From a phage, in NCBI GenBank assembly GCA_011939005.1, contig GCA_011939005.1_4858.1: a stretch of 64,000 nt of DNA; one strand, given 5' to 3'. Positions 1,998 to 63,989 of the stretch are shown in pieces. The translations under genes were made by a program, and so were the position numbers. The number at the start of each line of letters is the position of its first letter. Positions within the stretch are counted from its first letter, which is position 1. Under the pieces are notes generated by a model that saw only the letters and a program-made list of their open reading frames with translations, ran no database searches and was not told the origin of the DNA.

Positions 1998-2057
1998 GTT
2001 AATAGTCCTTATAAAAGTCAATGGTATTTTCAGATGATTAGTTACTGCTGTAAAAAA

Positions 2058-9944: not shown

Positions 9945-10571
9945 TTACTGCGGAATAAACTTACGGTGTCCGAGCGATTCCCAAAAACTGTCGGTGCGCT
10001 CTTTGGTTAATTCATACCACGCACGCCCGGCATCAGAATCGACAACCTTTAACGTTTCAGTAAGCAGGAATTTGAACAGTTCAGCGCTACGACCGGGTGC
10101 CACGCCGTCGAGATATATCGGGATTAAATAACCGGTTTTGATTTCTTCGTACGGTTGCGATTGGTGCTGGCCAACAACCCAGGCATCAGCAGCGCTACCG
10201 ACCAATGTGGTGTTTACAGTTAACTCATCAGAAATCCAGTTAACTGTATCAGCCATTATTGAATCGCCATTGACGTAGAAGAAAACTAAACGTTTAGGTT
10301 GCTCCACCGAACCAGCCAAATCTAATGCAGTAGTTCCGGTGAAGATCGTATTATTGGGATTACGTTCTGCAATAGGTAGAGCAAACCACGCTTCGAGCTG
10401 CCCCCAGCTACGCGGCAGTGCTTCTTTAAACCACTTCACCAATCGCGGGTATTCCAGAAACCCTTCTACCTCTTCTTCCATCAGATTGATACGCAGTTTG
10501 GTATCCTGACGATTCGCTTTCTGACACGTCACCATGTCGTCGATGAAACGAATCAGGGTAATCTCGTTCAT
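9945..10571 (-). CDS. hypothetical protein (208 aa)
   Basis: ATG with AAGGAT RBS; no Mre11-type phosphoesterase motifs. Confidence 0.65.
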   Translation of the reverse strand: MNEITLIRFIDDMVTCQKANRQDTKLRINLMEEEVEGFLEYPRLVKWFKEALPRSWGQLEAWFALPIAERNPNNTIFTGTTALDLAGSVEQPKRLVFFYVNGDSIMADTVNWISDELTVNTTLVGSAADAWVVGQHQSQPYEEIKTGYLIPIYLDGVAPGRSAELFKFLLTETLKVVDSDAGRAWYELTKERTDSFWESLGHRKFIPQ

Positions 10572-10587
10572 GTTTAATCCTTCTTCA

Positions 10588-10617
10588 ACAAAAAAAGAAG
10601 GTAGCCCGTAGGCTACC
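10588..10617 (-). terminator. rho-independent terminator
   Basis: Hairpin ggtagcc-cgta-ggctacc with T-run on minus strand. Confidence 0.6.
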
Positions 10618-10625
10618 TCTCGTAT

Positions 10626-11126
10626 TTACAGCCCCATATGCATAAGGGAAATGATTGGGACCTTACGGCCACGAATCATTGCATACGGTTCGTACATTTG
10701 TGCGTTAGTTTCGAATAACTCACAGGCCGGAATACGGTCACCGGTAGAGAGTTGTAAGACCTCAATTTGGTCGCCCCAGAAGTTATTCACTAATACGTGG
10801 TCGACAGTGTTGTCTTCACGACCTTCAGGGGTTTTGCAATAAGTGGCTGCATCGTACCAACCTTTGCGGTATACTTCATATCCCGCATGAAGCATCCGGT
10901 AGTACGGACGTAGCTGTGGGGCATTCAACGCAGCATCTAACCATTCGCTGTGGATGCTGTTAATCAGTACGGTTGCTTCTGCTGGCCAGTCGGTGCGATT
11001 GAGGGTTAACTCGCCTAACAACTTCAACTTCCAACCAGTAGAAAGAATAGCACGGGTACGTTCAGGGTTAACGTTCATCTGAGTAAAGAAAGAAGAACGG
11101 GTATCGTCGAGAATGTTCATGTTCAT
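10626..11126 (-). CDS. hypothetical protein (166 aa)
   Basis: ATG at 11126 with AAGGAT RBS; track start 11192 is GTG inside the terminator hairpin. Confidence 0.6.
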   Translation of the reverse strand: MNMNILDDTRSSFFTQMNVNPERTRAILSTGWKLKLLGELTLNRTDWPAEATVLINSIHSEWLDAALNAPQLRPYYRMLHAGYEVYRKGWYDAATYCKTPEGREDNTVDHVLVNNFWGDQIEVLQLSTGDRIPACELFETNAQMYEPYAMIRGRKVPIISLMHMGL

Positions 11127-11155
11127 TTGCTTAATCCTTACGGGTAATAGTCGAT

Positions 11156-11230
11156 TAAAAAGGACCCTGCGGCTAAGTGTTGGGGAGATCACCGCAGGGC
11201 CAAAGTGAGATGGGTCGTCATCTCACGTTA
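11156..11230 (-). terminator. rho-independent terminator (compound hairpins)
   Basis: Stems ccctgcgg/ccgcaggg and gtgagatg/catctcac followed by T-run on minus strand, downstream of gene 11256..11639. Confidence 0.5.
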
Positions 11231-11255
11231 TAACATCTGTCTGAAAACTTTTCGG

Positions 11256-11639
11256 TTACTGGTCGAGCGCTATTGAACCACGCACTTCGCCTTGTTGTTC
11301 AATAACCAGGAGGCGCTGTTTGGTTTTCGTATTGTAAGCGAGCGACGCGCGAAGCGTCGGGTCGCACGTTATTGTCTCTACCGGCACAATCTCTTGTGCC
11401 TTTGAGTTCAACAGAAAGTAGTAACCTGCCGGACAAGTTTCCTCGCCCTTTGCGTGGACTAGGATGTACTCGTCGTGCCGGCTGACTTCTTCACATCTAC
11501 CATCGTCGCCAGTACAGACTTCGAATGAAGGCGGGTTGTACTGATACGGTGTGCCCGGCAGTAAATCTTCTACGCTGGTTGTAGCTGAAGCGGAAGCGGT
11601 CAAGAACACCGCCGCGATAATACCCATAAATCCACGCAT
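11256..11639 (-). CDS. small secreted Cys-containing protein (127 aa)
   Basis: ATG with AAGGAA RBS; signal-peptide-like N-terminus MRGFMGIIAAVFLTASASA; four Cys. Confidence 0.6.
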   Translation of the reverse strand: MRGFMGIIAAVFLTASASATTSVEDLLPGTPYQYNPPSFEVCTGDDGRCEEVSRHDEYILVHAKGEETCPAGYYFLLNSKAQEIVPVETITCDPTLRASLAYNTKTKQRLLVIEQQGEVRGSIALDQ

Positions 11640-11652
11640 GTTGTTTCCTTAC

Positions 11653-12063
11653 TTAAAAGTCGAGTTTATTGATGCCTACGTTTTTCTTAATCGTAGGGTC
11701 GTACATGATAACCGTCAGGGCATTGTCGCCTGGGTCGCGAGTAAACTCGGCAACGGCTTCACCACTGCAGGCTTGGTTATCATTATAGTTCATGGATTCG
11801 GCTTGCCCGGTTGCCATGTTAATAACCCCGTATTCAGGGTCGCCACATGCGACACCGCCCATCGTTTTCACTAACAGGTAACGGTTGTTATCGGACATCG
11901 CAACGATCTGGCAGCTACCGCCTTGTACGTCAGAGTTCTGGCACCAGAACTGTCCGCCGTATTCGTGATCGTTAACAACTTTTGGTAACTCGATACTTCC
12001 AGCGCGAGCGAAGAAGCTAATGGCCAGAGTAGCAAGTAAAACTGGTAATAAAAAATGTTTCAT
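11653..12063 (-). CDS. small secreted Cys-containing protein (136 aa)
   Basis: ATG with GAGGTG RBS; signal-peptide-like N-terminus MKHFLLPVLLATLAISFFARAGS. Confidence 0.6.
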   Translation of the reverse strand: MKHFLLPVLLATLAISFFARAGSIELPKVVNDHEYGGQFWCQNSDVQGGSCQIVAMSDNNRYLLVKTMGGVACGDPEYGVINMATGQAESMNYNDNQACSGEAVAEFTRDPGDNALTVIMYDPTIKKNVGINKLDF

Positions 12064-12085
12064 AATAGCACCTCAATTTTTTGAG

Positions 12086-12577
12086 TTATTCTGAATAGTC
12101 GATTGTTTTGATGGTTTCCATACCGTAGTACATAGCGATGGAGGCCAGAGTTTTGGTATCAGGTCGCTGTACAAAACCGGCCCTGAAATCTTTGCTGCAA
12201 ATTTTCTCCACTGATAGTTCATCACGATTAGGGATAAGCCATAACGCGTCACCGTTGTGACGGTCGACTGCACCCCACCAACCACCTGGGCAATCTTTAT
12301 CGCCCGGACGGTGTACGATAGCGACACGTCCGTTGAAGGATATGTCAACTACACGACACTGTTTCTTAAGCAGCTTACGCGCATTGCACCAGAACGGCTT
12401 ATCATTAAGATTGATGGTGCGGGTATATGCTGGAATGCTGCCGTTAATACTGCCCTGGAACCCGCTGAATTCGTCAGCGCGTGCCTTAGAAATCCGTAGC
12501 CCAACAACAACTGCCATCAACAGCACAGTAAAAAGCACCACCTTAATCAGGTGGTGATTAACGTTATTGCATTTCAT
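12086..12577 (-). CDS. exported or membrane-anchored protein (163 aa)
   Basis: ATG at 12577 with GGAGA RBS; N-terminal hydrophobic stretch LIKVVLFTVLLMAVVVGL. Confidence 0.55.
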   Translation of the reverse strand: MKCNNVNHHLIKVVLFTVLLMAVVVGLRISKARADEFSGFQGSINGSIPAYTRTINLNDKPFWCNARKLLKKQCRVVDISFNGRVAIVHRPGDKDCPGGWWGAVDRHNGDALWLIPNRDELSVEKICSKDFRAGFVQRPDTKTLASIAMYYGMETIKTIDYSE

Positions 12578-12965
12578 TTTTGATATCTCCACGAATGAGG
12601 GTGATGCGACCAACGAGCACATCGTTGTGATAAAAACTCACAGCAACCAGATCTGGCAATTCCAACGGCGATACGCTGACCGAAGTGACTTTTGGTTGAT
12701 CGCACGATATGTCGATTAATCGCTGATACATTTTCAGTTTCTTATCAGCGATAACCAGCCCTGTGCAGTTCTTACCATCCGTCAGTTTGTAGATTTGTAA
12801 CTGTTCGACCTCACGCATCAGTTCCGGTTTTTCATTCGGTGCAATGCCATAATCCGAATCAGCTGATGTGTATTCAGTCACGTCTGGCTTATCGAAAGCA
12901 TAAGTTGCTGCGATACCACATGCGGCCAGAACTACTACTGCTTGTAAGAACTTCTTGATAGTCAT
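12564..12965 (-). CDS. putative lipoprotein (133 aa)
   Basis: N-terminus MTIKKFLQAVVVLAACG with lipobox-like LAAC. Confidence 0.55.
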   Translation of the reverse strand: MTIKKFLQAVVVLAACGIAATYAFDKPDVTEYTSADSDYGIAPNEKPELMREVEQLQIYKLTDGKNCTGLVIADKKLKMYQRLIDISCDQPKVTSVSVSPLELPDLVAVSFYHNDVLVGRITLIRGDIKNEMQ

Positions 12966-12990
12966 GTTTTACTCTATAGTCGATTGGTTT

Positions 12991-13019
12991 AAAAAAGAAT
13001 AGGCTACCCGGAGGTAGCC
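12991..13019 (-). terminator. rho-independent terminator
   Basis: Hairpin ggctacc-cgga-ggtagcc followed by T-run on minus strand. Confidence 0.6.
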
Positions 13020-13022
13020 ATT

Positions 13023-13063
13023 GAGTTAATCTCTTAACTCTCACCTAAGTAATATATATCTGA
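13023..13063 (-). promoter_or_regulatory. conserved element copy 1: palindrome gagttaa-N4-ttaactc plus shared 30-mer
   Basis: 30-mer ttaactctcacctaagtaatatatatctga at 13034-13063 is identical to 61077-61106; both carry the same upstream inverted repeat. Confidence 0.4.
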
Positions 13064-13069
13064 GATATT

Positions 13070-13657
13070 TTACAATGTGAACGTTGTGTTAAGAATACGA
13101 AAACCCAATGCTCGCTTAGCGATTTGCATATTTGCAGGCGTGAAGTCCACCAGTTTGATTTGAACGATCGATAAATCGTAAAGCTTGTGAAGCACTTCGA
13201 TTTTGTGTCGCCAATCTGTTTTTTGGTGCAGCTCTATCGTCGTTGGTATCTCGCCTAGTCTCGGCAACTGTGCTCCAAGTAAACGATGATGGACTTTACC
13301 GTTTATAGTTGGGGTGCCTTCCGTGACCATCAGTCGCGCATCGATGTAGTTATTTCGCTTAGCGTACTCCATAAAAGTTTTGACATTTATCTTTTCCTCG
13401 TATAGAATGCTGCGAAAGTATTCGTAAATGATGTGTCCTGCCTCCCTACCGCTTTCCGAGTCCGGAATAACCTTATCGATGAAAATCGCAGAGACCACTT
13501 CGTTCCCACGCGAATGCATTGTAATGACCCTGTCCCCGTGCTGCGCAGAAGTTATTAACCCACTTACATCAAGCCCCACTGGGAACAAGCCGCGACTACG
13601 CATTACGTGCAGGTCTTCTAACCTGTTCTCTTGCAGTCGTAAAATACGTTCTGTCAT
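13070..13657 (-). CDS. hypothetical protein (195 aa)
   Basis: ATG at 13657 with GAGGTG RBS (track start 13666 is GTG). Confidence 0.6.
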   Translation of the reverse strand: MTERILRLQENRLEDLHVMRSRGLFPVGLDVSGLITSAQHGDRVITMHSRGNEVVSAIFIDKVIPDSESGREAGHIIYEYFRSILYEEKINVKTFMEYAKRNNYIDARLMVTEGTPTINGKVHHRLLGAQLPRLGEIPTTIELHQKTDWRHKIEVLHKLYDLSIVQIKLVDFTPANMQIAKRALGFRILNTTFTL

Positions 13658-23807: not shown

Positions 23808-26800
23808 ATGAAAACGTATCCTTACGATCCTCGGGGTGTAAATCCTGAGTGTCACTTCATCGAGGAACGTATCATCGACTCCGACAATCCTAACGATCGG
23901 GTGGTGATGCTAGATCATCGCCCGTTTTTCGAAGGATTGGTGGTAAGGCTCGCCGGCTCGTCCATACCGCTTACCCGCGGGACGGACTATGAGCTGGAGT
24001 ATGCTTTAACACCGTTGGACGACTCGGTGACGACCCCGGTGTTTTGCGGGGTGCATCTTATTAACCCTAAACTGCGTGGTGCGGTGGTCTTTGAAGGCCA
24101 GATGCTCGGGGGTACGTTTTACAGTGGTTTGATTGAGATGTTGGATGAGCTAGTTAAGGCACTCAACAATCCAACGGCTGCAGATTGGCTGCTTTTAGGT
24201 AATCGACCTTCCCTGTACCCAGCCACCCCTGCAGCGGTGGCTTGGTCAGACATGCTGAATAAAAAGTATGTTGCCTCTGCAGTGCATGATGTGGAGTTAG
24301 ATGCCGGGGCGGCCAACGAGCAGATTCGTGAAAAGCTTACTGAGCTGAAAGATGCGGTTTTGGGCTTAGGAACTGAAATCGCCGCATTTAACTACCCCGG
24401 ACACATTGCGTCGACTAACCCTCATGGGACTACCGCGGCGCAGGCCGGTGCGCATCCTGTCAACCTGAAAACGCCAGATACTTTCCTGGCGTATGGAAAG
24501 ACGTTGCGTCAGTTAACCAGCGAGGTCCGTGCACTGGGTCTGCAACAATCGGATATCGACAAGTACATTTCTAAATGGGTATCGAAAGAATCCAAAGGGG
24601 TGTTTAATGCGACGATATCCGGTACTCGTGCCCTGTTCCGTTCTCCTGCTGGTGAATCCGAAATTGTGTTCTCTGCTGAGGCATTCACTCTTAAATCTAA
24701 TGGCTCTGTTGTGTTGGCGTGTGGGTATGCCGACACTACTGGAACCGTCCGGTTTATGGAGTGGAAAGCAGGCATCAATACATTACGTATTGAGTCGACT
24801 GGCAGTGCCTTGGGGATGGATAAGCTGACGCTTAATGGTACGACGTTACTGACCACAACTGCTCTCATGGGCTATCAACAAGACCCTGGTACCGGCGGTG
24901 GTACCGTTGACCCGGATGACAACAAACTGTACATTAGCGGGGTGAACGGCATCACTTTCACGGGTAAAGGGTCAAAAGCCGATCCCGTCACCGGGAAGGT
25001 CACAGCCAAACCCGCGACGACCTCTGAACCAGGCGTTGTGACGCTGACTGATAAGCCGAGCGATGTAGTCAAAGGGCAAGCAGCCACCCCGTCGGCGCTT
25101 TTGCCGTATGAGGGCGACCTGTCTTCGTACGTCAGGAAGACAACGCTGCTGAATAACCAGCCGATGAACACTGGTAGTCGAACGCTGACGAAAAAGGATT
25201 TAGGTTTAGACTTGGCTGATAACACAGCTGACGTCGATAAACCACTTTCTGATGCGTTGGCAGAAGCAGTTACCGGTCTTAGTGATAAAGGTCACCATCA
25301 CAACTTCGCTGATTTACAGATTCCAACAGCCTCTCAAACTGTGCCAGGTATCGCACGATACTCTACCAACTTAAACGGCTTGGCGGATAATCGCGGCGTT
25401 ACCCCGAATGTTCTGAACGATCTGTCAAAACGTTTAGACGTAGTTGCAGCTGCGCTAGCAAACGCGAAAGAGGATTCCGTGACCGATTTTGCCGCTGTGC
25501 GTGGTAAGACTTGGACTGTGGGATCTACACGTACCACCCTCGCCGTAACGGATTTGAATTATTTCTATCTGTTAAATGGTGCACGTAAAGAGGGGACGGT
25601 ATCTGGTTCGATAGACCTGCAAACCACCCCGATGTTCCAGTGGTTCTCTCCAGATAACCGTATGGAAAGAACGTGGCAGAACGCGGTAATTAATATCGGT
25701 GACGGTATTGATTTTAGTGGGTTTGAGGTTGCCGTCCCGGAAACGAACTACGGTGCGCAGATTGGGTTAACGGCAACCGGCATGGGTGACTTATCGGTTG
25801 TTAACCTTTTAGCAAAAACGTGGGTTCGTTGCGATACAGGTAAACTACGTATTTGGGTTCGTGGCGGTGGTGCTGTTTCTGTTTATCTGGACGGTGTAAT
25901 TATCGGTGCGGGTATTACAGAAGCGGGGTATCTGGAGGCGACTGTCAAAGAGGGGTGGAAGCAACATTGCCTGGCGTTTCGTGCGGAATGTAACAATAGC
26001 GCGAAAGCAGCTGCTATACGCTTCACCATTTACGATGGTGATTACCCGGTTGCGGTGTCGGACAAAAACACCAAAGTTGCCCGCCTGCAGGAGTTTGTTA
26101 AGACCGCGAACGGTTTACGACATTATCTTTACGTGAACATGATAACCAACGCATTGTATTCACGTGCGGAACCCATTGTGGACACGGAAGGTATTAACCT
26201 GGAGCGTGGGTACATTGGTTACATTGATGTACCCGAGACGGGATTGGTTGCAGGTACGACTTACGAGTTTGAAACGACGTTTGATTTTGGCATGGCGTCC
26301 GAACTTAAACGGCACTTCGAAACACGTCTGGCGCACGGAGTGAGTAATGCCGACTGGTCGTTGACGGATAACCCAAAAATGTTACCGCTAAACAAAGTCG
26401 ATCCGTTGCCTAAACAGTGGCTTTATGCGTACCCTAATAGTCCAGTTTCTGGTAACCACTATATTCGATTAGACCGAGGGTTATTCGATTATAAATTTGA
26501 TAGTACCATTTCAAGCCTAGTGTTTGTTGGAGCGGTTGTCTCCACAGAAAGCGCATCACCGTACTGCTGGTTTACACCAAGCAACCCGAAAGAAAAAGGG
26601 ATGGCGACGTTTGAAGGTTCTGTGGTGGTCGATGTTGATTTGTCGGAAGCACAAACAGTTCGCGTTCGCGATATCACATTAAACTTCATGGCCCCGTCTG
26701 CAGATGATAAAAGCAAGACCAGGGTACTGAGATGGAGTGGCAATCGTCCAGAATTGAATTGTGGCTTCATCACGTCTCCTTATAACCAAGCAACTGGAGG

Positions 26801-60285: not shown

Positions 60286-60304
60286 CTATATCCTCAATCG
60301 TCGA

Positions 60305-60523
60305 TTAACAGACCCACACAAGGCCGTTATTCTTTGGGCGGTCTTTAACACCATAGGTTACTTCAACATTGTCAATCGTTTTCTCGTCGTCTTTCATTGT
60401 ATTCATGAAAGCTTTGGCTTCTGCTGCAGACATTTTCAGCAGCAGGTCAATCATGTCGGGCTTACGTTTGGCTGCGGTTTCAACAACAGGTTTGATTTCA
60501 GATTTGGAGAACAGGTTGCGCAT
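60305..60523 (-). CDS. hypothetical small protein (72 aa)
   Basis: ATG with AAGGAA RBS. Confidence 0.5.
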   Translation of the reverse strand: MRNLFSKSEIKPVVETAAKRKPDMIDLLLKMSAAEAKAFMNTMKDDEKTIDNVEVTYGVKDRPKNNGLVWVC

Positions 60524-61031: not shown

Positions 61032-61066
61032 GTTAAAACTCCTTAAGATAATGGTCGATTAGATAA

Positions 61067-61106
61067 GAGTTAATTGTTAACTCTCACCTAAGTAATATAT
61101 ATCTGA
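61067..61106 (-). promoter_or_regulatory. conserved element copy 2: palindrome gagttaa-N3-ttaactc plus shared 30-mer
   Basis: 61077-61106 is identical to 13034-13063; lies between a terminator and the RBS of gene 60585..61031. Confidence 0.4.
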
Positions 61107-62969: not shown

Positions 62970-63290
62970 TTAAAATCCATTGCGACCTCCTTGTGCGATG
63001 TATAACGCACATTTCGCATTGAGTGCTTCGATATTAGCGATAAGTATCATCACCCCGCCGAGTGTTCGTGGTACGCGAACTGCTTCGTACTCGCGACTTT
63101 GTGTACGGACACAATACTCATCGCCCAGAAACGCGATTTCGTAATACTCAGCGCGTAGCGGCACAAATGACTGCAGCAACATATCTGCGGTTTGATAGTC
63201 GTCAGTCAGTTTCCCGCCCTCGAGTAAATATTTCTGAATCTCGTGAATGGTCAATCCCTGTAATGAAATAGACACCGGCTTCTCCTTCAT
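62970..63290 (-). CDS. hypothetical protein (106 aa, weak)
   Basis: ATG start without RBS; overlaps next upstream gene by 89 nt. Confidence 0.3.
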   Translation of the reverse strand: MKEKPVSISLQGLTIHEIQKYLLEGGKLTDDYQTADMLLQSFVPLRAEYYEIAFLGDEYCVRTQSREYEAVRVPRTLGGVMILIANIEALNAKCALYIAQGGRNGF

Positions 63291-63627
63291 GGTCGATTAA
63301 TAACAGTTCAGGTGGCACGTCATAGTCGATGGGTGCGGACTCCTCCATCACGCTATACAATCGCTGATAGAACCCTCTGGAGGTTTCCAGGTGCCCTCTT
63401 GACACGTGTCTGACATGCGGTGTATTAGGATGATAAAACTCGCCGTAGGTTATCGCTAACTCGACAAACCATAGACATAGTTCTCTTGGCCCGTATCGGT
63501 TATAAAACTTTATCACCCCAACATCAAACATCTTGTTGTAATGCGGTAAATCGCGATAACGAAGTTTTAGTGTACCTACACCGATGCGTTGAAGCTCGAT
63601 AGAGATAGCTACGTCTATGGTTAACAT
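63202..63627 (-). CDS. hypothetical protein (141 aa)
   Basis: ATG at 63627 with AAGGGTA RBS. Confidence 0.5.
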   Translation of the reverse strand: MLTIDVAISIELQRIGVGTLKLRYRDLPHYNKMFDVGVIKFYNRYGPRELCLWFVELAITYGEFYHPNTPHVRHVSRGHLETSRGFYQRLYSVMEESAPIDYDVPPELLLIDHEGEAGVYFITGIDHSRDSEIFTRGRETD

Positions 63628-63650: not shown

Positions 63651-63989
63651 TCAGTTAAATCCGGTATATTCGTTGATGCTACCGTCCTTGATATACACGC
63701 CTGGCGTCAGTGCAACTTTACGTGGATCGTTATCAGCACGCTCGCCGTTACACTGAACGTTCCACTCGTTGACTAAGCGCTCCATTTCGCGCGATGCATA
63801 TAGGCGCACGTCTGTAACCAGCTCGCTGGCCTCACCCAGATGCGTTGCGTGAAGCACGCTGTTCTCCAGGCTGTAGAGTTTAGCGAGCAGGATTTTGTTA
63901 AGTTCTAACGCTGCTTTTGCAACGAGTGCATACCCTTGACGTTGTCCGTCTGTGCTTGCATTCAGTAACGTCAGCTGATGGTTTTTCAT
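63651..63989 (-). CDS. hypothetical protein (112 aa)
   Basis: ATG start; ORF complete in window. Confidence 0.5.
   Translation of the reverse strand: MKNHQLTLLNASTDGQRQGYALVAKAALELNKILLAKLYSLENSVLHATHLGEASELVTDVRLYASREMERLVNEWNVQCNGERADNDPRKVALTPGVYIKDGSINEYTGFN

Follow-up and report, generated by a model that had tools for sequence, protein, structure and literature searches.

What does a short sequence that recurs just ahead of several start codons do in a jumbo bacteriophage? The sequence, AATCGACTAT on the gene (minus) strand, lies in a 64,000-nucleotide (nt) stretch of phage DNA (GenBank assembly GCA_011939005.1, contig GCA_011939005.1_4858.1), hereafter the window; its plus-strand form is the 11-mer AATAGTCGATT. 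A first-pass annotation had suggested that it might be a phage promoter or an element of the untranslated region (UTR). We find strong support for a functional, strand-specific and conserved cis-element ahead of start codons, and the motif proves to be a module within a larger conserved cassette of early-promoter box, 5′ stem-loop, motif and Shine-Dalgarno (SD) sequence. To the reading that we favour, an RNA-level control site beside the ribosome-binding site (RBS) of a subset of early mRNAs, we assign a probability of about 0.42.

The window DNA belongs to an SPN3US-like, phiKZ-related jumbo phage: around the motif copies, a 6-kb stretch shares 97% identity with Salmonella phage SPN3US and some 35 close relatives (Seoulvirus, genome ~240 kb). 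SPN3US-like phages encode two multisubunit RNA polymerases (RNAPs), a virion enzyme for early genes and a non-virion enzyme for middle and late genes, and according to a 2020 review the AT-rich early promoters of phiKZ-like jumbo phages are the only ones predictable from sequence, middle and late signals escaping bioinformatics (PMC7598289). Post-transcriptional control in these phages is almost unexplored, and a cross-genus, non-AT-rich element beside the RBS of about 14 genes per genome offers a concrete, easily testable handle. For genome-wide tests we used the SPN3US reference (NC_027402; 264 coding sequences, 93.6% coding and 6.4% non-coding). The window plus strand corresponds to the SPN3US minus strand, and minus-strand genes of the window are sense-strand genes in the reference; we name them after their SPN3US orthologues, gp180 to gp184.

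Recurrence, position and conservation of the motif

Three exact copies of AATCGACTAT lie on the minus strand of the window within 1.84 kb, where 0.12 are expected in the whole window under a uniform model (P(>=3) = 2.8e-4). The recurrence is therefore real, and the first-pass remark that three exact 10-mers within 2 kb are unlikely by chance holds. The plus-strand AATAGTCGATT is exact at 11146-11156 and 12094-12104 and matches at 10 of 11 positions at 12975-12985; with up to one mismatch it has five matches in the window against 1.23 expected, a count that none of 100 shuffles reached. From the motif end to the ATG there are 10, 31 and 20 nt for the starts at 12965, 12063 and 11126, respectively, so the annotated distance of 20-40 nt is right when counted from the motif start (20-41 nt) but not from its end. 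The three starts had been called consecutive, but they belong to the gp180, gp182 and gp184 orthologues, that is, to every other gene, and no copy lies ahead of the start of the gp181 orthologue. A weak variant at 11656-11665, which is not conserved in relatives, may be a chance match. As annotated, one copy overlaps the last codons of the upstream gene: the copy at 12095 lies within the final codons of the gp181 orthologue (coding context ...ACA ATC GAC TAT TCA GAA TAA) and sits 20 nt from the SD GAGGTG at 12069-12074. Variants had also been listed before three more distant starts; those ahead of 61031 and at 63289-63298 (followed by GTG 63275) are borne out, whereas the one at 63989, at the edge of the window, is caATCGAACacATG (AATCGAAC), without the GAC core.

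In SPN3US we counted eight exact copies of AATCGACTAT against 0.46-0.52 expected, all eight on the sense strand, while Markov-1 simulated genomes held 0.52 copies on average and three at most. A chance origin is thus rejected both by shuffles of the window and by simulated genomes. Six of the eight copies lie no more than 45 nt upstream of a same-strand start (p = 7e-9), as do 13 of the 30 copies with at most one mismatch (p = 1.4e-13). The first-pass proposal had hinged on whether the motif is more frequent in intergenic than in coding sequence; across SPN3US it is, five of the eight exact copies falling in the non-coding 6.4% of the genome (p = 4.9e-5). The 10-mer is among the commonest in the genome, alongside SD and early-promoter words, and an unbiased 8-mer enrichment upstream of genes also recovers the motif. 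An antisense partner in the phage genome was rejected, there being no exact reverse-complement copy.

Seoulvirus, Erskinevirus, Machinavirus and uncultivated relatives share the motif, with a conserved core GAC[T/C]AT and the consensus AATCGACTAT-Y-R (Y, pyrimidine; R, purine), while its flanks diverge across these lineages. At the gp180 junction it is kept in phages STsAS (AATCGACCAT; 71% nucleotide identity at the exported-protein cluster) and Asesino (ATTCGACTAT) with the same 10-nt gap, diverged flanks and no early box nearby. At the gp184 junction both keep it (AATCGACTAT in STsAS, TATCGACTAT in Asesino) after the same hairpin and T5, and the hairpin stem shows compensatory changes in these relatives. 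Neither the copy at 12095 nor the weak variant at 11656 is conserved in STsAS or Asesino, and the former is therefore lineage-specific. Across 20 diverged copies the consensus is A-A-T-C-G-A-C-T-A-T, followed by a pyrimidine in 19/20 and a purine in 18/20; the distance to the SD is 1 nt in 12 of these copies and 5-8 nt (the Seoulvirus type) in the other 8.

A larger set of 46 distinct start-proximal copies was mined from SPN3US, Erwinia phage Machina (capsid protein 77% identical), STsAS, Asesino and uncultivated relatives. Twenty-two have a promoter-like box upstream and 24 do not, and many of the box-less copies stand in short junctions between stop codon and SD with no terminator upstream, that is, inside operons. 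The gap to the start codon is 13-14 nt in 21 copies, 18-22 nt in 13 and 10 nt in 3. The first class reads motif-C-[A/G]AGGA, 1 nt from the SD; the second is the Seoulvirus type, about 7 nt from the SD. A collection scan anchored on motif plus SD returned mostly chance 15-mer matches in unrelated contigs and was not used.

Each genome has about 14 genes with the motif beside their RBS. Apart from one that encodes an HTH_3/Cro-C1 domain protein (SPN3US 94310-94675), these genes are small and their function is unknown, which fits early genes; no common functional theme was found among them. In the replication and structural operons of SPN3US the motif is not present, and other motif classes are found there.

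Two exact sense-strand copies lie deep in SPN3US genes, at 93795-93804 (the thymidylate kinase gene) and at 222528-222537. Both are followed by a pyrimidine-purine step, neither has a plausible downstream start codon or was found in Machina, and they are possibly chance or internal sites. The start annotated at 23886 in SPN3US is probably 27 nt too far downstream, since the in-frame ATG at 23859 has a GGAG SD and lies 18 nt after the motif, in line with the usual motif-start spacing.

The leader cassette

Aligned SPN3US sites give the order type-B box, stem-loop, short linker, motif, SD context and ATG (Table 1). The type-B box reads tttcAGATATATATTACyTAGGTGAG, with the stem-loop beginning at its GAG; after the stem-loop come a linker that is often T-rich, AAtCGACTAT, TAatCTtAAGGAGTATT and the ATG. 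A second kind of box, type A (cAGATAGATATTATCTyAsnGA), outnumbers type B, with at least 12 SPN3US sites. Published predictions of early-promoter consensus sequences are TATATTAC for phiKZ, …TATATTACDWHDGTG for 201phi2-1/phiKZ and …AKATATTATYWWADTG for OBP/N1M2 (PMC7058600); type B resembles the second and type A the third. From this similarity we infer that both kinds of box are active early promoters, and because they are so taken, the motif downstream of them would be transcribed.

The two kinds of box differ in their leaders. Strong type-B boxes are followed by stem-loop and motif in 7/7 cases in SPN3US and 6/8 in Machina, while type-A boxes almost never come with the motif (1 of at least 12); type-A leaders are short and without a hairpin, and type-B leaders always begin with a stem-loop. 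Six of the eight type-B cassettes of Machina carry (a/t)T-n-GACT(A/T)T fused to the SD (GACTATCGAGGA…ATG), and this phage has one standalone copy in addition. Scanning IMG/VR for the type-B box yielded 63 distinct cassettes; among the 46 with a recognisable SD and start, GAC[T/C][A/T]T is present in 20, and there are others with near variants (AACCAT, GATTAT, GACAAT).

In 43 diverged cassettes (loci L011-L095) the stem-loop folds at -5 kcal/mol or below in 81% of cases versus 20% of shuffles, and the stem begins at the first base after the type-B box in 36 of the 43. The arms vary in sequence (GAGAGUU/AACUCU, GAGAUU/AAUCU, GAACUU/AAGUU, GAGCGUU/AACGCU and others), which indicates compensatory change. 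This 5′-terminal stem-loop, often followed by TTTT, may be an mRNA stabiliser or a weak attenuator. Distances to the motif are variable both from the early box (25-60 nt) and from the hairpin (0-25 nt), and several SPN3US leaders (65455 and 94280) hardly differ over a stretch of 27 nt. Of the window copies, copy 1 comes with the complete cassette and an extra terminator-like hairpin, copy 3 with a type-A-like box, a stem-loop and a long hairpin with T5, and the copy at 61051 with a plain type-B cassette.

Table 1. Motif copies, leader elements and other candidate signals, in window coordinates unless SPN3US (NC_027402) is named
Feature	Position	Strand	Context
Motif copy 1, AATCGACTAT	12976..12985	-	10 nt before ATG 12965 (gp180 orthologue); then A-GAG, weak SD
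Motif copy 2, AATCGACTAT	12095..12104	-	last codons of gp181 orthologue; 31 nt before ATG 12063 (gp182 orthologue)
Motif copy 3, AATCGACTAT	11147..11156	-	20 nt before ATG 11126 (gp184 orthologue); SD TAAGGA at 11135-11140
Weak variant, ACTCGACTTT	11656..11665	-	16 nt before ATG 11639 (gp183 orthologue); overlaps upstream stop codon
Motif copy, AATCGACCAT	61051..61060	-	complete type-B cassette; 19 nt before ATG 61031; SD TAAGGAG 61039-61045
Motif copy, AATCGACCAT	63289..63298	-	fused to SD GAAGGAG; 13 nt before GTG 63275; within upstream coding sequence
Motif copy, AATCGACGAT	60297..60306	-	then T-GAGGA; GTG start 13 nt downstream (SPN3US 114807 orthologue)
Variant, CATTGACTTT (Machina-type TTGACTTT)	2014..2023	-	16 nt before ATG 1997
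Type-B box, CAGATATATATTACTTAGGTGAG	13040..13062	-	matches 201phi2-1/phiKZ predicted consensus …TATATTACDWHDGTG (PMC7058600)
5′ stem-loop, GAGAGTTAagagatTAACTC	13023..13042	-	begins at predicted early transcript 5′ end
Terminator-like hairpin, GGCTACCtccgGGTAGCC + T-run	12991..13019	-	5 nt upstream of copy 1; called by terminator scan
Type-A-like box, CAGACAGATGTTATAACGTGAG	11222..11243	-	upstream of copy 3; compare cagATAGATGTTATctcagtGA at SPN3US 109971; conserved in STsAS
5′ stem-loop, GAGATGacgaccCATCTC	11207..11224	-	in STsAS GAGACG…CGTCTC, compensatory change
Long hairpin, GGCCCTGCGG…CCGCAGGGTCC + TTTTT	11157..11201	-	abuts copy 3; segment dG -32.9
Type-B box, CAGATATATATTACTTAGGTGAG	61083..61105	-	61-kb cassette
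5′ stem-loop, GAGAGTTAACaaTTAACTCT	61066..61085	-	61-kb cassette
Type-B boxes, SPN3US	4432, 56299, 65418, 94244, 113991, 165692, 223282		
Type-A boxes, SPN3US	upstream of 7435, 15768, 23886, 29014, 72738, 92653		
Type-A boxes, SPN3US, further regions	upstream of 100864, 109971, 162031, 184093, 191651, 238229		
gTATGAC/A sites, SPN3US	upstream of 19976, 38521, 59713, 64444, 87749, 99613, 154958, 158739, 227140		candidate late promoters
T-run-ACG sites, SPN3US	upstream of 5534, 11544, 85648, 88449, 93524, 95846, 168900, 181064		possible middle-promoter class
Genes starting just after a terminator-like hairpin, SPN3US	e.g. 33403, 57770, 131835, 135425, 168177, 225670		window example: hairpin 10598-10619 before ATG 10571

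RNA-level control site or second promoter

The RNA-level control site could be an operator or a cleavage site, with a logic like that of RegA and RegB in phage T4. Just 5′ of the SD, in an unpaired part of the 5′ leader or of an intercistronic spacer, the motif would be recognised on the mRNA by a sequence-specific protein, probably phage-encoded. Once bound, this factor would control ribosome access or cleave the leader, so that a defined group of early messages would come under common post-transcriptional control, for instance a timed shut-off. That a trans-acting factor reads the motif as RNA is suggested by several features. In folds of 20 complete leaders the motif is predicted to be unpaired, with a mean unpaired probability of 0.70 versus 0.36 for the upstream leader. 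Among the 46 start-proximal copies it is tightly locked to the SD, it occurs within predicted early leaders and, without a box, inside operons, and the exact SPN3US copies are on the sense strand in 8/8 cases. Signals of early, late (TATG) and post-terminator T6ACG classes are separately visible in SPN3US. A start preceded by a terminator does not discriminate, as 22 of the 24 SPN3US genes that begin no more than 35 nt after a hairpin are without the motif.

In T4, RegB cuts within GGAG, and the sites of RegA are degenerate and AU-rich. Common to T4 and the motif are short linear sites in or beside the RBSs of a subset of early messages under common post-transcriptional control, and as in a RegA/RegB-like regulon the copies lie in translation-initiation regions of an early-type subset, 'early' being judged from the boxes. 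Unlike the T4 sites, the SPN3US motif is a distinct sequence of 10-12 nt located 5′ of the SD; its action at the RNA level is a proposal. A more specific version, in which the tag AAUCGACUAU at the 5′ edge of the RBS marks a subset of early messages that a dedicated phage protein switches off or processes as infection proceeds, strikes us as rather unlikely in that full form. If RNA-level control is correct, phages that transcribe their genes with their own machinery would have a sequence-specific post-transcriptional regulon, defined by the motif, and a bait would be at hand for finding the factor. The tag and the 5′ stem-loop would then define a modular early expression cassette. The whole (early box, stabilising stem-loop, motif and strong SD) also offers a ready expression module for engineering these phages.

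The motif is apparently undescribed in phages. In our literature search no phage paper mentioned it, and matches to the exact 10-mer were eukaryotic, apparently primer or construct sequences. The kind of element has a precedent in phage AR9, where early and late transcripts with mapped transcription start sites (TSSs) have conserved 5′-UTR motifs of unknown function (PMC5312081, Fig. S3).

Several points weigh against RNA-level control. Near-invariance over ten to twelve bases in a single genome is more usual for a promoter than for the site of an RNA-binding protein. The pyrimidine-purine step that follows the motif, together with another before it, is what is seen at TSSs, and the A-A…Y-R register matches the late promoter of the AR9 non-virion RNAP. 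Copies 1 and 3 follow strong hairpins with T-runs and would be on the mRNA only via read-through, while 20 nt separate copy 2 from its SD. Neither a trans-acting factor nor a cleavage product is known, no search for a candidate factor having been made, and no transcriptome or TSS data for the SPN3US clade were found in the literature searched.

These points lead to the chief alternative, in which the motif is a start-site-proximal promoter for a phage multisubunit RNAP (the non-virion enzyme or an alternative form). Transcription would start at the purine 2 nt past AATCGACTAT, which would then span about -11 to -2, or else the motif would itself be transcribed as +1 to +10. It would give early-promoter genes a second, hairpin-less transcript ('continuous' expression) and act as an internal promoter in early operons. 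We rank this slightly below RNA-level control. The strand specificity, the location upstream of starts, the strong enrichment and the rank among the commonest 10-mers all suit a promoter, as does the abutment of copies 1 and 3 on hairpins with T-runs, the gp184 copy being conserved in three genera. Internal promoters often lie in upstream coding sequence, as copy 2 does.

The closest known counterpart is the late promoter of the AR9 non-virion RNAP, 5′-AACA-N6-T-A/G(+1) (PMC5312081, PMC7598289). When +1 is assumed, not measured, to be the purine 2 nt after the motif, the 20 diverged copies have A(-11) in 15/20, A(-10) in 17/20, Y(-1) in 19/20 and R(+1) in 18/20, the same register as in AR9. 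In SD-fused copies R(+1) is also part of the SD; the Y-R step is kept in the spaced class too, which is free of the SD constraint. So placed, both would be 12-nt start-proximal elements that occur in tandem with early promoters and internally in early operons, and SPN3US encodes an RNAP of the homologous family. Such tandems of an early with a late or middle promoter are known from AR9 and from PHIKZ054, which has an early and a middle promoter (PMC7598289, PMC8244752). If the motif is a promoter, it would represent a new specificity class for these unusual polymerases, with an AR9-like register. The differences are that the motif has T-C (T in 16/20, C in 11/20), not the C-A of AR9, at -9/-8, and that its N6 is conserved (GACTAT). 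AR9 recognition needs template-strand uracil, and AR9 late promoters precede virion genes, which the motif does not.

Spacing argues against a promoter. The fixed distance to the SD, 1 nt or about 7 nt, recurs at dozens of independent sites, and a TSS after the motif would give leaders of 9-20 nt that start at the SD, outside the ranges measured for AR9 (at least 26 nt; PMC5312081, PMC7598289) and phiKZ (mostly 31-40 nt); other promoter-like classes in SPN3US have leaders of 24-39 nt. Placing the TSS at the motif start would need a conserved transcribed region of 10 nt without a conserved upstream element. Moreover, replication and structural genes, which should have middle and late promoters, lack the motif and have other motif classes in those positions, and the motif is coupled almost only to type-B boxes and hardly to type-A boxes. 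Adjacency to a terminator is not specific in SPN3US, and the succession of terminator and motif as proof of a promoter is undermined by the same 22 of 24 motif-less genes. Of the two roles proposed at first pass, the evidence strongly supports a functional cis-element upstream of starts and leans slightly to the UTR, or RNA level, because of the SD locking, the position in predicted early leaders and operons, and the atypically short leaders that a promoter would imply.

That the motif is an operator in double-stranded DNA, through which a phage DNA-binding protein (for example of the Cro/C1 helix-turn-helix type) blocks or modulates early transcription downstream of the early promoter, is improbable. 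The motif does lie downstream of early boxes, and autoregulation is conceivable for the motif-bearing HTH_3/Cro-C1 gene at SPN3US 94310-94675; however, the motif is non-palindromic and in one orientation only (8/8 sense), its distance from the box varies (~25-60 nt) while that from the SD is fixed, and it is also present without a nearby promoter. Still less probable is a nut-like processive antitermination site, formed by hairpin and linear box, for type-B early transcripts. The succession of promoter, hairpin and linear box resembles boxB/boxA, the many terminator-like hairpins inside operons need read-through, and antitermination has already been suggested for 201phi2-1. Against this, the box keeps its spacing to the SD but not to the hairpin (anywhere from 0 to 25 nt away), the terminator-like hairpins of the window sit between 5′ stem-loop and motif, many copies have neither hairpin nor promoter, and hairpin sequences are not conserved. 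A lambda-type nut site does not fit either, on the same grounds of varying hairpins, variable hairpin-motif distance and terminator-like hairpins that precede the motif in the window.

The least probable alternative, already largely refuted by conservation across genera, makes the motif a functionless passenger of a duplicated promoter and leader cassette, or the window copies chance. Promoter-early stem-loop (PeSL) cassettes of T4-type phages, reportedly described by Arbiol et al. in 2010, are comparable: they are repeated modules of early promoter and stem-loop at the 5′ borders of early units, and, as at the gp180 junction, the cassette marks the point at which related genomes become homologous again. 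PeSLs use sigma-70 promoters, and to our knowledge no conserved linear box beside the SD has been reported for them. The near-identical SPN3US leaders at 65455 and 94280 point to recent common ancestry of some copies, but chance is excluded statistically, across genera the motif stays while hairpin arms, loops, spacers and coding sequence diverge, and it is kept at the gp180 junction of STsAS and Asesino without an early box and in many standalone copies.

Several further identities were tried and rejected. A scan of 10500-13300 for sigma-70 promoters gave no minus-strand site (one site in total, on the other strand, versus 4.5 expected). A T7-like promoter (AAT-CGACT-…TATAG) does not fit, the motif lacking the 3-4 nt between CGACT and TATA; as for a single-subunit RNAP, the sole unassigned 'polymerase' open reading frame (ORF), the one ORF scanned rather than the whole proteome, had no Pfam match. 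The late promoter of phiKZ is T-3 A-2 T-1 G+1, with all four bases required, and its middle promoter has TACT centred at -22 (PMC7598289, PMC8244752). Phage group and polymerases are the same, and TATGAC-type candidates stand before SPN3US structural genes, but the TAT of the motif is followed in 20 copies by C (13), T (6) or A (1) and never by G. With the -22 geometry the TSS would fall inside the gene, SD-fused copies having the start 13-14 nt after the motif. Nor is the motif itself a phiKZ-like early promoter, since it lacks the AT-rich box of about 10 nt (TATATTAC / ATATTATY) and the …GTG about 10 nt before the TSS; such promoters correspond to the boxes upstream, and the motif is separate from them, 25-60 nt downstream, and also occurs without a box. 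An RNA switch pairing the motif with the SD or start was rejected, as the motif is unpaired (0.70) and has no recurrent partner. So was pairing to 16S rRNA, where the longest perfect complement is 6 nt and the best duplex (-8.2 to -9.3 kcal/mol) is equalled or bettered by 26-50% of shuffled motifs.

Other signals and neighbouring genes

Two further promoter-like classes were seen in SPN3US. The first consists of gTATGAC/A sites that stand 24-39 nt before the start codon, for the most part of structural genes; they are candidate late promoters of the phiKZ type (TATG, with +1 at the G). T-runs followed by ACG just after terminators, upstream of genes for replication, recombination and nucleotide metabolism and in some cases with CTTATAG about 20 nt downstream, form a possible middle-promoter class; TTTTTTAC is enriched upstream of SPN3US genes (6 of 13 copies, p = 1.8e-5). 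In 24 SPN3US genes the start lies 0-35 nt past a terminator-like hairpin and T-run, which leaves no room for a recognisable promoter; such start-adjacent hairpins must often be read through, or else be stabilisers of 3′ ends after processing.

On the minus strand at 12991-13062, a box, a stem-loop and a GC-rich hairpin with T-run stand in tandem before the gene, and premature termination could yield an early small RNA of 50-70 nt. This segment has a sub-threshold Rfam match to the Salmonella Hfq-binding small RNA isrD (22.6 bits versus a gathering threshold of 37; E = 0.17), for which the terminator hairpin is probably responsible; at gathering thresholds, Rfam gave no match.

The minus-strand ORFs 12564-12965, 12086-12577, 11653-12063 and 11256-11639 encode four consecutive small proteins, in whose N-termini we read by eye features like those of signal peptides or transmembrane segments (MTIKKFLQAVVVLAAC…, with a lipobox-like LAAC; MKHFLLPVLLATLAISFFARA; MRGFMGIIAAVFLTASASA). 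The proteins encoded within 11256-12965 have PHROGs matches, all of unknown function, and no Pfam domain. Finally, an extended conserved RBS context, CTTAAGGAGTATT, recurs in SPN3US with or without the motif (window example, 61039-61045), and 17 of the 20 genomic copies of TTAAGGAG in SPN3US lie upstream of genes.

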